Part shown: positions 46,077 through 53,276 of the stretch, in pieces | Layout: each line of letters begins with the position of its first letter | Numbering within the stretch: the first letter of the stretch is position 1 | Virus record (IMG/VR): IMGVR_UViG_2778261533_000001 | Location: 18,026-82,025 of that record | DNA from: a virus | Lineage: Duplodnaviria; Heunggongvirae; Uroviricota; Caudoviricetes | Length of the DNA: 64,000 nt | Direction: 5' to 3' (one strand) | Translations under genes and position numbers: made by a program | The notes under the pieces: model-generated | What the model was told of the DNA's origin: nothing | Seen by the model: the letters and a program-made list of their open reading frames with translations, nothing else | Database searches by the model: none

Positions 46077-46099
46077 AAAGCTCCTTCGGGAGCTTTTTT
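46077..46099 (+). terminator. Rho-independent terminator
   Basis: aaagctcc-ttcg-ggagcttt followed by T run. Confidence 0.65.
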
Positions 46100-46140
46100 G
46101 TGCTTAAATCATGTCAATATAGCGAAATTTTGAGCATATT

Positions 46141-46437
46141 ATGGAAATTGATTTTTCATACTCTCCTGAAACGATAGAACGAAGATTTGAAATAATTGGA
46201 TGCAAAACTATTTCCGAGGAGCATTATTGGATTCTCTATGATGCCAATACATGGTTATGTGCCTTAGCAGAATGTCAGCCATCGTTATGTGTAGGGGAGG
46301 GGGCTTTTCGACATAAGGTGCTGGCTACACTTGAAGTGAACACGTTACGATATTGGTGTGTAGAAATACTTAGTGATAACAAAGAATTGCACTTATTATT
46401 GCTGAATAAGTGTGCTTCTCTGCGCAGAAAAGCATGA
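46141..46437 (+). CDS. Hypothetical protein in AT-rich segment
   Basis: 98-aa ORF; coding status uncertain. Confidence 0.3.
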   Translation: MEIDFSYSPETIERRFEIIGCKTISEEHYWILYDANTWLCALAECQPSLCVGEGAFRHKVLATLEVNTLRYWCVEILSDNKELHLLLLNKCASLRRKA

Positions 46438-46602
46438 AAAAACCCAACCGCTCTCCCGGAATTATCAGAAGAATATGTGCGGAAAGTTATAGCTAGCTAT
46501 TGAAAAGCTAAAGTAGATCGGTTAGATTTGCATTACTCATCTACCATGTGTAGAAAGAGCGATCGAACCCGATACATAGCAATATGTGTCGGGTTCAGCT
46601 TT

Positions 46603-47082
46603 TTATGTCCCAAGTGCTCTTTTTCTGCTTTGTTTGAGTGTTCTGATTTTACTGTCATAGGTTACAACATAGGCTGTTTTGAGAAGCCAATAGTCTCTAC
46701 GTGCGGATAGCACAACAACGTAGTTTTCACACTCATTCCAGATTACCCACTCTTCAGTTGGTCCTCGTCTTTCAGACCAACATGATATATCGCAATGGTT
46801 ATAATTCCTTATCATGTGCGCGATCCAGCGAATTCGCTTGCACCGTTCAAGATCGGGTATACGTTCTTCTTCTATTTTTCCCTCTGATACTAAATGCCAA
46901 AATCCGAATTCTTTCCCATTATATTCCGGTGAATAACGTAATCGAACAGGGAGACCCTTAAACGTTATATTAGATATTAAAATATCTTCTCTAACAACAT
47001 CATATACATCGTCTATATACTCTTGCCAACTTCCATTGAAGTACAATAAATCTGGCATTTGAAGCATCAGCGAGCCTCCCAC
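46603..47082 (-). CDS. Hypothetical protein, second gene of AT-rich two-gene operon
   Basis: 159-aa ORF overlapping the upstream gene by 16 nt; no recognisable motifs. Confidence 0.45.
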   Translation of the reverse strand: MGGSLMLQMPDLLYFNGSWQEYIDDVYDVVREDILISNITFKGLPVRLRYSPEYNGKEFGFWHLVSEGKIEEERIPDLERCKRIRWIAHMIRNYNHCDISCWSERRGPTEEWVIWNECENYVVVLSARRDYWLLKTAYVVTYDSKIRTLKQSRKRALGT

Positions 47083-47771
47083 ACGAAAATATTAAATTTA
47101 CTTTCTGTTGGAAGAGTACTTTTTAGTAACTCCCTGTTTGTATGTGATTTTATTCTGTTTATGACTTGGATTTTTCCCGCGTTGCTATTCATTCCTCGAT
47201 GAACGTAGCCTAACGCGCCAATGAAAAGATCCGTTAGCTGCAATTGCTGCACTTCATGAGATCGTATATGTTGAATTCTGTTTATCGACTCATGATTGTA
47301 ATCATAGCGATCATTGTGAAGAACCCCTCTTAATTTCTCAATTTTTTCAATACCTAAAGTATCTTTTATATCTAGGTAGATATTGTATGTGTTGTTACTT
47401 TCTATTATGTTTTTTAAGACATAAAAAAACATCTTATAATAGAAAGTATTATGATCTTGATGGAATCGAGCATGGTCCAGTTGCTCTTTATCAGGAACAA
47501 CAACACCTCTAAAGCGCAATGCAGGGTTGCTGAAGAAGTAATCTACGACATCTAAGTAAAATTCAACTTTGGACGCAGATACTTTAGTCCACTTGATTTC
47601 GAAATCAGGTTTTAGATTGTGTTTTAATTTTAATTCCTTGATGTCTCTAGCAATTTTTTTTGTGATAGTGCCGGGACACCAAAGCGCACCCAATACCATG
47701 ACTTTATTATGATCATTTAGTAGGTGACAGGATTCATCGCAGAATACATTAAATGTTCTTCGGTTCAACAT
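47067..47771 (-). CDS. DUF3800-like protein (conserved N-terminal DES motif)
   Basis: 234 aa; N-terminal FNVFCDESCHL resembles the DUF3800 signature; AT-rich codon usage. Confidence 0.45.
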   Translation of the reverse strand: MLNRRTFNVFCDESCHLLNDHNKVMVLGALWCPGTITKKIARDIKELKLKHNLKPDFEIKWTKVSASKVEFYLDVVDYFFSNPALRFRGVVVPDKEQLDHARFHQDHNTFYYKMFFYVLKNIIESNNTYNIYLDIKDTLGIEKIEKLRGVLHNDRYDYNHESINRIQHIRSHEVQQLQLTDLFIGALGYVHRGMNSNAGKIQVINRIKSHTNRELLKSTLPTESKFNIFVWEAR

Positions 47772-47922
47772 GTTAACTCCACTTATTGTTAGGTAGAATT
47801 GTCCGTTAGTTGTTTATTAATTGCAATAATGGGGCGTCCAGTTTTGGCAACAGTGTCCTCTTACCAGGACACCTATGAGTTTGCCTTATGGCAAACTAGA
47901 GGTGTTGAAAGTATGCATGGTT

Positions 47923-47936
47923 ATAATTAGAGCAAT
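47923..47936 (-). promoter_or_regulatory. Degenerate C1 operator-like half-site (12/17)
   Basis: ttagagcaat core at the 3' end of repL, upstream of the two-gene operon. Confidence 0.3.
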
Positions 47937-47939
47937 TCA

Positions 47940-48785
47940 TTACCCTCTGAATCCTGCCGGTATACCCCATTGTTCGTTATCTTTATTTTTGGCTAAAACC
48001 GCATTAAGAGCTTCGTTTACCGTCATGCAATGCGGTAGGTTATCGAAGTTTGATATCCCGCCAATATCAGGCGAACGCTTGTTCTTCAGGTAAGCATATT
48101 TCCGCGCAGCCGCCTCTACTTTCTGCTTGAACTCATGTTTTTGAGTGCGTTTTTTGGATAACCGCAGATTGTCAGCCTTTGCTTTTGCCTTAGCGATCCA
48201 TGAAGTCAATTTTTTGAGGCTGGTCGTTCCGGCACCGCCGGAAACTGATCTTTTTGTTTTTTTAACTTGTGACTTCTTATTCTTTATTGCCACGTCATCC
48301 TGACAGGGGGAGGGGGTATCATTTTGACATGGGGGTGTGGATAAAAAATTAAATAAAGCCAATGTCTTAGCGAGAACAGCTTTAACCTTGGTTGCCGCTG
48401 AAGAGATCTTTAATTTGCTTTCTATCAGCGCATTTTTGGCTTGTTGTGCGAAGGCCAAAAAGGATGGTGTAAACCGGTACAGGTTAGCGCGACGTTCACG
48501 GTGATCGCCGATAACAATCTCTACAGACAGAATTCCTTTGTTTACAGCTTCACGGAATGCACGAACGACGGTTGATTGGCTATAACCAGTTTCTGCCGCG
48601 ATCAGGCGGTGAGGCTTGTGAATGAAGTATTCACTGGTTGTTGCCGCGAGATTTGCACATTGCGACAGGATATGCCCGGCGCTACGGGATAGACCGGAGT
48701 GTGTTACAAAGCAGGCCAATTCATAGCCAGAAAAAGTAAAATCGCTCATCGTTATACAGCTCAGGAAAGTGACTTTAGCCAGCAT
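47940..48785 (-). CDS. repL: Lytic replication initiator RepL-like protein
   Basis: 281 aa, same length and position (downstream of kilA) as P1 RepL; basic C-terminal half. Confidence 0.6.
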   Translation of the reverse strand: MLAKVTFLSCITMSDFTFSGYELACFVTHSGLSRSAGHILSQCANLAATTSEYFIHKPHRLIAAETGYSQSTVVRAFREAVNKGILSVEIVIGDHRERRANLYRFTPSFLAFAQQAKNALIESKLKISSAATKVKAVLAKTLALFNFLSTPPCQNDTPSPCQDDVAIKNKKSQVKKTKRSVSGGAGTTSLKKLTSWIAKAKAKADNLRLSKKRTQKHEFKQKVEAAARKYAYLKNKRSPDIGGISNFDNLPHCMTVNEALNAVLAKNKDNEQWGIPAGFRG

Positions 48786-51189: not shown

Positions 51190-51407
51190 AAATCCCCCTG
51201 AACGTCGGCAGAGAAGGGGAGGTTCCAGTAACTAAGTGAATTGCGCGAGTTAGTTGAAAAACGGGCAGTAAAAATGCAGGGGCCATCAGGCAATTGAGAG
51301 CGTGCTTCGTCTTCTGTTGCTGCGATGACGAAGTGATAGTGGTGTTTTTTACAGGAATAGAAACGCCAGATGAATTCTTGGCGTGCGCAAGGATTGGCAT
51401 TAACCAT
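51186..51407 (-). CDS. icd: Icd (interference with cell division) protein
   Basis: 73-aa ORF immediately upstream of and overlapping ant; matches the P1 icd-ant arrangement. Confidence 0.7.
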   Translation of the reverse strand: MVNANPCARQEFIWRFYSCKKHHYHFVIAATEDEARSQLPDGPCIFTARFSTNSRNSLSYWNLPFSADVQGDL

Positions 51408-51721
51408 AGTTACGGCCTCACAATCAGGTTTAACAACCTGCTACCCGCTGCTAAACAGGTGGCAGGACGTGACGGGGTTAGCAGACTGGCGATTGTGAAA
51501 CCAGCAGGCCGAAGCCTCCCCATCACGCCCCACCATAATTTGGGCGTAACGCGGTTTTACGGACACAAAAATACCGCAATATCGGATATCTGCGGCTGTC
51601 CGCACAATCATTCAGGCTGCTAAACCCGGTCGCAGAATTTGCTACGACGGCGAAACTATAAGCCTGAACGATTAAAAGGTCAATATGATGCGAAAAGATA
51701 GCATTCACGACTTAAAAATAC
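51408..51721 (-). ncRNA. c4-type antisense RNA and leader region of the immunity I operon (boundaries approximate)
   Basis: Untranslated about 300-nt leader between C1 operator (51722..51738) and icd; P1 encodes the c4 antisense RNA here; exact RNA ends not determinable by eye. Confidence 0.35.
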
Positions 51722-51738
51722 AAATTTATTAGAGCATT
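51722..51738 (-). promoter_or_regulatory. C1 operator-like site (16/17) upstream of the c4-icd-ant operon
   Basis: aaatttattagagcatt. Confidence 0.6.
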
Positions 51739-51835
51739 GTTTGTTTAATAAATGCACAATTGGATCTAATAACCTCTTTTTTTTAAAGGCGAAAATATGT
51801 ACCCTAAATGAGTTATAAGGCAGGTGAGGTTATAA

Positions 51836-51969
51836 TGAGAAAACTATTACTACCGTTATTATTTATGGCTGGGACTGTTAATGCAGCATCAAGCGTAAAG
51901 GAGATTTGTACCGATTATACGAAATACCTTGGGCACGTTTACGCCTTTGCGATCAATGACTATTAATCC
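51836..51969 (+). CDS. Small secreted protein (signal peptide)
   Basis: 44-aa ORF MRKLLLPLLFMAGTVNAASS...; below ORF-track cutoff; AT-rich. Confidence 0.3.
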
Positions 51970-52305
51970 ATGCGTAGGAGTGGATTTATGCTGATTCGTT
52001 TGTTTTTAGTGCTTTCCTTTTTAACATTTAATGTTTTTGCTGATGAAGTTGACTTTTCGAAGGTAGATTGTAATTCAGTGGAAACAAGAAAAGCTCTTAT
52101 TGAAGAATATAACGAAATATTATCGTCATATGGAATAACAGTGGTTGATTCTTATAATCAAAAAACTATTCAGAAAGGAATAAATAAACTGGTCTGTTAT
52201 GGGGTTTACCAATATTCAGATGGCTCTTCGGAGTATGTTATTTATAAAGCATACCCAAATAGTCTTGGTGAATTAATTAGTGAGTTTAAACCGATTAATG
52301 AGTGA
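51970..52305 (+). CDS. Secreted protein (signal peptide), sim-region candidate
   Basis: 111 aa, N-terminal MLIRLFLVLSFLTFNVFADE signal peptide; AT-rich. Confidence 0.45.
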   Translation: MRRSGFMLIRLFLVLSFLTFNVFADEVDFSKVDCNSVETRKALIEEYNEILSSYGITVVDSYNQKTIQKGINKLVCYGVYQYSDGSSEYVIYKAYPNSLGELISEFKPINE

Positions 52306-52312
52306 ATGGAAA

Positions 52313-53092
52313 ATGAAATTATTTAATGTAATAACATTTTGTTGTGCTATTTTTGCTGGAAGCGCGATAGCTGATAATAAATTGCCAGATTGGCTTTCTA
52401 CCTCAAAGAAAGATTATGATTTAGTAAGGGCATTCTATTTGTCTGGATTTGCTTCGAAAGCAATGAACAATCAATTTGGTTATCATTTGCCATCTGAGTT
52501 GGTTAATGATTTTAAAGATAATGAATTTGCTGCTCAGGAAAAATGGAACACAATTCCAATTGTGTATGGTGAAATAAAATCCATAAGAATGGTGAATAAT
52601 AAACCAATTGTAGAGTTATTTACTCCAGGGGAAAATGCAACGCCACTAAATTATATCAAATTGAAAATATTGGATTCAAAGCAAGACTCTCTGTTAAAAC
52701 TAAAAAAAGGGGATGATATATATGCAGTGTGCTCAGGTGCTAATTTTAGCTTAGTGCCAATTCTGAGCAACTGCACTCCTGCAACAGACGTCATTGATGC
52801 TGCACTCTCTTTTTCTGGTGAATATATGTTCCCTGCTTTTGATTCTTTTTCGCCTACTAAGCAAAACGTCAAATATATATTCACAAATCAAGATCCTGTT
52901 CAGATGATGAATTTTATAGGGTACCTATCCTTAGTCGATACAACGAAGGATAAGAAAAAAATGGATATGGTTCGTAAGTGTACGCCTTGGAAGCCGGAAT
53001 GTTCACAACAATTCGTTGATGTAATGGAAGGATTTGATAGCATCATGTATAAATATGAGGGAGAATTTAAAAATTACATAGAATTAAAATAG
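52313..53092 (+). CDS. Secreted/periplasmic protein, superinfection-exclusion (Sim-like) candidate
   Basis: ORF 52280..53092; signal peptide MKLFNVITFCCAIFAGSAIA; AT-rich; position next to immunity I as for P1 sim. Confidence 0.45.
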   Translation: MKLFNVITFCCAIFAGSAIADNKLPDWLSTSKKDYDLVRAFYLSGFASKAMNNQFGYHLPSELVNDFKDNEFAAQEKWNTIPIVYGEIKSIRMVNNKPIVELFTPGENATPLNYIKLKILDSKQDSLLKLKKGDDIYAVCSGANFSLVPILSNCTPATDVIDAALSFSGEYMFPAFDSFSPTKQNVKYIFTNQDPVQMMNFIGYLSLVDTTKDKKKMDMVRKCTPWKPECSQQFVDVMEGFDSIMYKYEGEFKNYIELK

Positions 53093-53124
53093 TATTTGAA
53101 AGGATAGTCAATTTAAGTTTAAAA

Positions 53125-53150
53125 AAACGCCCATTAAAGGGCGTTTTATT
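53125..53150 (+). terminator. Rho-independent terminator
   Basis: aacgccc-attaaa-gggcgtt followed by T-rich run. Confidence 0.65.
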
Positions 53151-53276
53151 GTTTTACTCAAAACAACCTGATTATGTGATAACCATATCATATCCCTCAT
53201 TCCACCTACACTGATTACCCCCCAGACAACAATATTCCTACTCAATGAACAAATGACTACTCGTAGAATCGGTTAA

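Follow-up and report, generated by a model that had tools for sequence, protein, structure and literature searches.

We analyzed the rlfA-rlfB operon (hereafter rlfAB) in a 64,000-nucleotide (nt) stretch of viral DNA (class Caudoviricetes; positions 18,026 to 82,025 of IMG/VR virus record IMGVR_UViG_2778261533_000001), which is referred to here as the window. Judged by its sequence, the window is phage P1 itself and the locus under study is the rlfA-rlfB operon of P1. On balance, we hold it to be somewhat better than an even chance that rlfAB is a self-contained, horizontally mobile two-protein conflict cassette, corresponding to the PADLOC candidate PDC-M04, and not a part of the lytic replicon. 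Such a mobile conflict cassette, acting in defense, exclusion, or abortive infection, is proposed because the two genes are obligately paired, their composition is foreign, they are present in some P1-like elements and absent from others, their relatives are nested in restriction operons and prophages, and the nuclease site of RlfA is apparently intact. It should be mentioned that rlfAB is not a new feature, as both genes have already been annotated in P1 and the family has already been catalogued by PADLOC as a candidate.

Identity, gene structure, and composition of the locus

Within positions 46400-48000, the window shares 99.9% DNA identity with NC_005856, AF234172, and AF234173, and the RlfA and RlfB proteins predicted from it are identical to the P1 proteins of NC_005856. 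An initial annotation, made from the letters alone, had placed the locus in a position corresponding to the rlfA/rlfB slot of P1; the right genes were named, but the locus is that of P1 itself. The sole mismatch to NC_005856 in this region is at position 47887 (T in the window, C in the reference). It sits in the tetraloop of a hairpin (GUUUGCC-AUAA-GGCAAAC) in the leader upstream of rlfA and leaves the stem unaffected.

Two overlapping minus-strand open reading frames (ORFs) of 234 and 159 amino acids (aa) had been described in the initial annotation. The first length holds, whereas 154 aa is favored for the second. In the ORF list, rlfB spans 46603-47082 on the minus strand and has 159 aa when begun at a GTG. 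The ATG at 47067, which gives 154 aa, is almost certainly the true start, because a GGAGG is located 8 nt upstream of it, RlfB homologs start at an equivalent MLxMP, and the P1 annotation (NC_005856) begins rlfB at the same codon. With this start, the overlap between rlfA and rlfB is therefore a single base (TGATG).

The G+C (GC) content is 35.2% for rlfA, 38.3% for rlfB, and 38.7% for the neighboring pmgF, compared to 47.2% for the window. The low-GC block at 46100-47925 (1,826 bp) has 37.3% GC against 47.1% (z = -3.3). Just 1.4% of the window's segments of this length have a GC content as low, so that the AT-rich stretch noticed earlier is real and the rlfAB block is compositionally foreign to the P1 genome. 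Near-identity to P1 RlfA/RlfB together with a genome-matching composition had been named beforehand as what would speak against acquired cargo; the near-identity was found, but the composition does not match that of the genome.

RlfA and RlfB form a strict two-gene pair

More than 5,400 relatives of RlfA were obtained in a word-indexed search, and at least 581 were confirmed in a genome scan. Among the matches listed, they are distributed in Enterobacterales, Bacteroidota, Nitrospirota, Chloroflexota, Cyanobacteria, Desulfobacterota, Acidobacteriota, Planctomycetota, and other groups, and are 48-74% identical to P1 RlfA. Pairing in bacteria was counted in the best 80 genome loci, where the RlfB profile was searched beside RlfA. 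An RlfB homolog is encoded directly downstream of RlfA in 79 of these loci, which come from many phyla, and the only exception lies at a contig edge. The commonest rlfA/rlfB junctions, whose lengths depend on our own start-codon assignment, are overlaps of 4 nt (25 loci) and 1 nt (13 loci). In IMG/VR, 198 viral contigs contain an RlfA relative, and RlfB is present in 76 of the best 80; in the four viral loci without it, the contig stops inside rlfA or within ~500 nt past it. Across bacteria and phages, RlfA and RlfB therefore constitute a strict two-gene pair.

RlfB is the faster-evolving member, with a median identity to the P1 protein of 35% vs 52% for RlfA. Its distance matrix is nevertheless correlated with that of RlfA (Mantel r = 0.45; none of 999 permutations gave a value as high). 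The RlfB profile search yielded 1,791 clusters at 50% identity, and almost every member listed is a free-standing protein of ~150-180 aa in which no domain is known. Domain fusions of RlfB, which were sought among its relatives for functional hints, were not detected, nor was any Pfam domain.

RlfA has a predicted RNase HII-like fold

RlfA matches the Pfam family DUF3800 (PF12686) with 54.2 bits (cutoff 21; E = 3.5e-14) over profile positions 1-148 of 149. This match confirms the resemblance to DUF3800 that had been suspected from an N-terminal DES motif, whose residues D12-E13-S14 are invariant, along with Q178-x-x-D181, in a 27-sequence alignment of RlfA. In 77 homologs, conservation reaches at least 97% at D12, E13, S14, C15, H16, D20, D134, K136, D137, and D181, and at ~50 columns of RlfA overall. 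The predicted fold is RNase HII-like (RNase H-like superfamily), with a sequence identity to RNase HII of 7-13%. According to the prediction, and not to superposed coordinates, D12 and E13 are located in strand 1, D134 and D137 after strand 4, and D181 in helix 175-191. Together, the modeled fold and the conserved residues suggest that RlfA may well be a catalytically competent RNase HII-like metal-dependent nuclease using the carboxylates D12, E13, D134 or D137, and D181. Published remarks ascribe to DUF3800 an RNase H-like fold whose active site is rearranged, and the conservation seen in RlfA agrees with them (PMC7736814; PMC10910872). A sequence search of the PDB found no solved DUF3800 structure.

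Residues C15, H16, and C32 are also invariant in the 27-sequence alignment, C11 is nearly so (at least 90%), and K136 and D137 are invariant. The Cys/His cluster lies beside D12-E13, is atypical of RNase HII, and could represent an extra metal site or a redox-sensitive switch. Compared with RNase HII/RNase H2A, RlfA thus adds conserved C11/C15/H16/C32 and K136/D137 and is always accompanied by RlfB; furthermore, RNase HII/RNase H2A have a housekeeping distribution, whereas RlfA is distributed like a mobile gene.

RlfB has no confident relative

The second protein had been said to carry no recognizable motifs, and RlfB indeed has no match in Pfam or NCBIfam. Its structure is predicted confidently (predicted local distance difference test, pLDDT, 92), and a Foldseek search of the PDB with this model gave nothing significant (best E = 0.06). 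The RlfB profile reached a best E of ~1 against PDB sequences, and no match to E. coli RelE was found by hhalign profile comparison. A weak resemblance to RelE and colicin D was observed below confident thresholds. The profile and structure-prediction searches proposed in the initial annotation thus identify RlfA as DUF3800/RNase HII-like and leave RlfB without a confident relative. The best-conserved residues of RlfB are P5, G12, Y22, F56, H58, R69, D72, R75, W81, W97, and T131, which would be compatible with nucleic-acid binding or catalysis. Compared with the BECR-fold proteins RelE/ParE and colicin D/CdiA, RlfB has an extra N-terminal half, which bears most of the invariant residues (F56, H58, R69, D72, and R75).

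Many relatives of RlfB are named 'oxidoreductase' by NCBI, and RlfB itself (YP_006520.1) is a 'replication protein' in RefSeq and PHROGs. Neither name is supported by any Pfam, NCBIfam, or structural result. The latter name goes back to a tentative remark in the P1 record itself, 'possibly associated with lytic replication'.

Genomic context of bacterial and viral copies

In 16-18 of 71 bacterial loci, a type I specificity subunit is encoded immediately upstream of rlfAB, and in 9-12 of 72, HsdR is encoded immediately downstream; approximately a quarter of the bacterial copies are placed between hsdS and hsdR. The upstream gene is frequently co-oriented with rlfA and overlaps or abuts it, and the stop codon of hsdS is often overlapped. 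Additional bacterial neighbors include GmrSD, KwaB, AIPR, MmeI or Eco57I methylases, and AAA_15/AAA_21 ATPases, and some copies are located in defense islands. Nesting of defense genes in type I restriction operons is also found for PrrC. TgvAB is a validated two-gene defense system embedded in such an operon (PMC11411939). The placement between hsdS and hsdR, co-oriented with hsdS, is shared with PrrC/TgvAB by about a quarter of the RlfAB copies. On the other hand, PrrC (an ABC-ATPase plus an anticodon nuclease) and GmrSD have no sequence or domain relation to RlfAB, and the P1 copy lies outside restriction operons: its neighbors are repL and pmgF, not hsdS/hsdM or hsdR.

In a mobile element of Algoriphagus, the gene order is hsdMS-RT-rlfA-rlfB-hsdR, followed by a Piwi-domain protein. 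The reverse transcriptase (RT) gene of this element (RVT_1, 502 aa) is located 23 nt upstream of rlfA and is nested in the type I operon before the Piwi-domain (Argonaute) gene; it may link RlfAB to RT-associated DUF3800 systems. In an Enterobacter lambdoid prophage, rlfAB is at the extreme end and adjoins int; in a genome recorded as E. coli, it adjoins the integrase of an integrative element (relaxase, TrbL) beside guaA; and in Klebsiella, it resides in a small islet with SymE. The nearest neighbors on viral contigs include integrases, CI-like repressors, lysins, and restriction-modification genes, which are the usual positions of prophage cargo. A Methylomonas locus has the order hsdM-hsdS-rlfA-(truncated rlfB)-hsdR. 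In this hsdS-rlfA-hsdR arrangement of Methylomonas sp. 11b, the gene behind rlfA is called as only 57 aa, with a gap of 660 nt after it. It seems that rlfB is truncated or frameshifted in this locus, which would make it an uncommon instance of RlfA lacking an intact partner.

Searches with PADLOC models assigned RlfA to PDC-M04A (1e-95) and RlfB to PDC-M04B (3.5e-52), and no validated system was matched. PDC-M04 and rlfAB belong to the same family, with adjacent overlapping genes in the A-then-B order and no sequence difference; the P1 copy differs in being carried by a phage-plasmid and not by a chromosomal island. Pairing and context therefore support the earlier view that the two genes are tightly coupled and are cargo of the toxin, abortive-infection, or defense type. 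The anti-defense role that had been offered alongside is less likely, as many bacterial copies are co-oriented and start-stop coupled with host hsdS.

rlfAB occupies a variable slot in P1-like elements

P1 repL is present in 516 plasmid records, and only 101 of them contain rlfAB. The alternative contents of the slot between repL and bplB are an 81-aa ORF with a 198-aa ORF, the 81-aa ORF with hokD, or an IS200/IS605-type transposase (orfB, TnpB) with the 198-aa ORF. The hokD type I toxin gene is found in some P1-like plasmids and the IS200/IS605-type orfB in phage RCS47; the slot thus accepts small cargo of the selfish or toxin type in general. The rlfA-rlfB-pmgF segment has been listed among eight variable, low-GC regions of P1-like phage-plasmids (PMC9603915; PMC6906374), and pmgF is exchanged along with rlfAB in these elements (see also PMC6906374). 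Residues 3-67 of PmgF share 43% identity (E = 4e-16) with the N-terminus of the 198-aa protein that takes its place in rlfAB-less plasmids; judging from this similarity, pmgF may be a shortened variant of the 198-aa gene that is swapped with the cassette, and its 'morphogenetic' label looks doubtful. In P1, rlfAB is dispensable cargo in a variable slot. The proposal that the locus is horizontally acquired cargo is thus supported by the 101 of 516 records, the alternative slot contents, the copies in restriction operons, prophages, and an integrative element, and the PDC-M04 matches.

P1 is among the most used phages in genetics, and its rlfA and rlfB genes have been tentatively 'replication-linked' since the genome annotation. 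Such a function, in which RlfA would be an RNase H processing the transcript-origin hybrid or primers at oriL and RlfB would be an accessory, appears very unlikely to us. Transcription from P53 is required for oriL to fire, and primers at ColE1-type origins are processed by RNase H. Both facts would suit a replication role, as would the position of the cassette next to repL and oriL (with which it is probably co-transcribed), the RNase HII-like predicted fold of RlfA, and the name 'replication protein' given to RlfB in RefSeq and PHROGs. However, ~80% of the plasmid records with the same repL lack rlfAB, a RepL homolog was found nearby in 0 of 87 non-P1 copies, and knock-down of rlfA or rlfB by CRISPR interference (CRISPRi) leaves P1 plating intact, both genes being scored as non-essential (PMC10695390). 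Moreover, the P1 fragment of pCYPAC-type vectors, as annotated in NC_005856, ends 4 nt before the rlfA start, and no family model supports the 'replication protein' label. The 'replication-linked' label of rlfA/rlfB is probably wrong.

A further explanation is a toxin-antitoxin or addiction module. In such a system, either RlfB (as a RelE/colicin D-like RNase) or RlfA would be the toxin and the other would neutralize it, stabilizing the P1 prophage or mobile elements by killing cells that lose them. The two-gene operon with a start-stop overlap fits such a system, as does the occurrence of the cassette on plasmids, an integrative element, and prophages and of the Hok toxin gene in this P1 slot in other plasmids. 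We nevertheless consider it unlikely. P1 already carries phd-doc, and the upstream protein RlfA is large, more conserved, and equipped with a full set of catalytic carboxylates, unlike a typical antitoxin. A DNA-binding antitoxin domain was not detected with Pfam/NCBIfam, the fold match of RlfB is not significant with either Foldseek or hhalign, and many copies are chromosomal in restriction operons, where addiction is not needed.

Block boundaries, C1 half-site, and transcription

The edges of the variable block were set by aligning P1 against P1-like plasmids without rlfAB. Homology to these plasmids ends on the left after the T-run of the bplB terminator (~46099) and on the right directly after ATTGCTCTAAT at 47926. 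The coordinates of the cassette and adjacent features are given in Table 1.

Table 1. Features of the rlfAB region (coordinates in the window)
Feature	Coordinates	Strand	Description
rlfA	47067..47771	-	234-aa DUF3800 protein, predicted RNase HII-like fold
rlfB	46603..47067	-	154-aa obligate partner, no described domain; TGATG-coupled to rlfA
Variable low-GC cargo block (pmgF, rlfB, rlfA, leader)	46100..47925	.	bplB terminator to C1 half-site
repL-rlfA intergenic leader	47772..47939	-	168 nt, three hairpins
C1 operator half-site, Orlf (formerly Op55)	47920..47936	-	annotated in NC_005856 as monovalent operator
PrlfA, predicted sigma-70 promoter	47798..47826	-	NC_005856 annotation, coordinates transferred; no operator overlapping
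Likely terminator between convergent rlfB and pmgF	46565..46596	.	14-bp-stem hairpin
pmgF	46141..46437	+	98-aa ORF, 38.7% GC, convergent with rlfAB, in variable block
bplB terminator hairpin (AAAGCTCCTTCGGGAGCTTTTTT)	46077-46099		exact left border of variable block

The right border coincides with a C1 half-site. Positions 47920-47936 read ATTGCTCTAATTATAAC and match the 17-bp C1 consensus ATTGCTCTAATAAATTT at 12 of 17 positions; the left 11 nt fit perfectly and the right part has diverged. With more than 3 mismatches, the half-site was missed by a 3-mismatch scan, which detected 11 other operators in the window (0.4 expected by chance). In a plasmid without rlfAB, the identical 11 nt are present behind repL, and the sequence diverges right after ATTGCTCTAAT. 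Because the same 11 nt follow repL in this plasmid, we assign the half-site to the conserved repL backbone, where it marks the junction with the cargo, and not to the cassette as an operator of its own. The operon had initially been credited with an operator-like site of its own: the degenerate C1 half-site is real, but it is shared by rlfAB-less plasmids. A literature search for Op55 found no paper, and the site is a predicted operator.

The leader RNA folds with -42.4 kcal/mol (z = -4.1 vs shuffles), and its last hairpin pairs with the Shine-Dalgarno sequence of rlfA. The rlfAB copy of the Enterobacter prophage has just 59 nt upstream, and other copies have different leaders or none. A conserved regulatory RNA was considered here and rejected; the leader is P1-specific and is read as a set of local hairpins, not as a feature of the family. 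A consensus promoter scan recovered neither the annotated PrlfA nor any promoter across the half-site. No intrinsic terminator was found between repL and rlfA on the minus strand; transcripts from the C1-controlled kilA-repL promoter therefore probably run on into the cassette. The hairpin between rlfB and pmgF is the only terminator-like site in 46300-48100; it was scored on the plus strand with a T-run, and its palindrome is also seen on the minus strand just past the rlfB stop codon.

This arrangement is one of several points that weigh against rlfAB as a defense cassette. A classical lysogen-protecting defense system would be expected to be on during lysogeny, yet the P1 cassette lies behind a C1-controlled operon. 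Furthermore, rlfAB has been reported among the early lytic genes, with rlfB named in P1vir transcriptomics (bioRxiv 10.64898/2025.12.28.696737). The role of the P1 copy may thus lie in lytic growth and not in protection of the lysogen. Conservation of RlfA is also unusually high for a defense gene (median identity of 52% between P1 and distant phyla). A literature search found no paper mentioning PDC-M04, which is a computational candidate only, and the physical interaction between RlfA and RlfB is deduced from genetics and gene layout only. The anti-phage role of rlfAB is accordingly put forward as a candidate function.

The same data bear on another explanation, namely that rlfAB is a lytic-phase weapon: an early nuclease pair that degrades host or competitor nucleic acids for takeover, exclusion, or counter-defense, and that does not protect the lysogen. 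In addition to the early lytic grouping of rlfB, the position of the cassette directly behind kilA-repL with no terminator between, the C1 half-site at the repL-cassette junction, and the fact that plaques still form upon knock-down, as for an accessory function (PMC10695390), are in line with it. However, most homologs are chromosomal and co-transcribed with host restriction genes, and other copies are located at prophage ends or in lysogeny modules beside integrases and CI-like repressors, which argues for a role on the side of the host or lysogen. P1 also has the separate predicted promoter PrlfA without an operator over it (NC_005856). A lytic-phase weapon therefore seems quite unlikely.

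Proposed mechanism

If rlfAB is a mobile conflict cassette, as we favor, its mode of action can be proposed more tentatively: an invading phage or element would trigger the RlfAB complex, leading to cleavage of RNA or RNA-DNA hybrids, and this cleavage would block the invader either directly or via abortive infection. RlfB would be made stoichiometrically with RlfA and bind it; its part in the complex might be that of a subunit that binds nucleic acid and provides specificity or regulation, or else that of a second ribonuclease resembling RelE/colicin D. With no terminator between rlfA and repL, the P1 cassette is probably transcribed as part of the C1-repressed kilA-repL mRNA, and it may also use the predicted PrlfA; expression would begin early in lytic growth, with perhaps some weak expression in lysogens.

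A bolder proposal, which is possible but rather doubtful in our estimation, is that rlfAB represents a new two-protein immune module, in which an RNase HII-like enzyme acts on RNA-DNA hybrids or ribonucleotide-containing nucleic acid of the invader and is gated or redirected by a new-fold partner. Copies in restriction operons would then be a PrrC-like back-up that responds to inhibition of restriction, and C1 loss at the onset of lytic growth would activate the P1 copy. In such a module, the new-fold RlfB would replace the dedicated RNAs, reverse transcriptase, or TPR modules of other DUF3800 proteins.

If a role in defense or exclusion proves true, a function would be obtained for the DUF3800 RNase H-like domain, which is also present in retrons and in Cas12 and Cas13 loci, and it would be established in an organism with every genetic tool in place. 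A further example of immunity genes within type I restriction operons would also be gained. Should the role not be confirmed, rlfAB stays an ordinary, already annotated accessory locus of P1. The value of rlfAB is that of a tractable entry to the function of DUF3800/RlfB modules.

Comparison with other DUF3800 systems

Elsewhere, DUF3800 proteins are associated with eleven different structured RNAs (PMC5737381), with the retron RT (PMC7736814), or with a TPR domain in Cas12 loci (PMC10910872). In Cas13 loci, the DUF3800 protein shares an operon with a kinase, and the CASK preprint assigns no function to the DUF3800 protein Csx32. Retron type VII and the Cas12a2/Cas12a3/Cas13 loci (TPR-DUF3800, Csx32) have the Pfam domain, the predicted RNase H-like fold, and the defense setting in common with rlfAB. 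In contrast to these systems, a reverse transcriptase, a TPR domain, and a CRISPR array are all missing from the P1 locus, where the partner is the small RlfB. RlfA also keeps the QxxD motif, whereas the retron DUF3800 clade has been reported to lack it (PMC7736814). A retron in P1 was considered and rejected, as there is no RT ORF among the neighbors and no Rfam hit in 45.5-49 kb.

The DUF3800-associated RNAs (DUF3800-I to XI, drum, and skipping-rope; Weinberg 2017) show that a DUF3800 gene is usually accompanied by a dedicated partner encoded beside it, which for rlfA is a protein. None of these Rfam motifs was detected in 45.5-49 kb of the window at E up to 10, nor in 20 homologous loci at gathering thresholds; many rlfAB loci have no intergenic room for such an RNA. 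Since no DUF3800 RNA is found beside RlfA, we infer that RlfB fills the partner role.

Other observations in the window

The bplB terminator hairpin gave weak, sub-threshold Rfam matches (STnc130 3' end and PhotoRC-I), which are merely terminator-like. The only other low-GC island in the window that is comparable to the rlfAB block is at 51.2-52.3 kb (51200-53200) and dips to ~33% GC. By coordinate mapping to P1, it corresponds to the sim (superimmunity) region, which likewise varies among P1-like elements.

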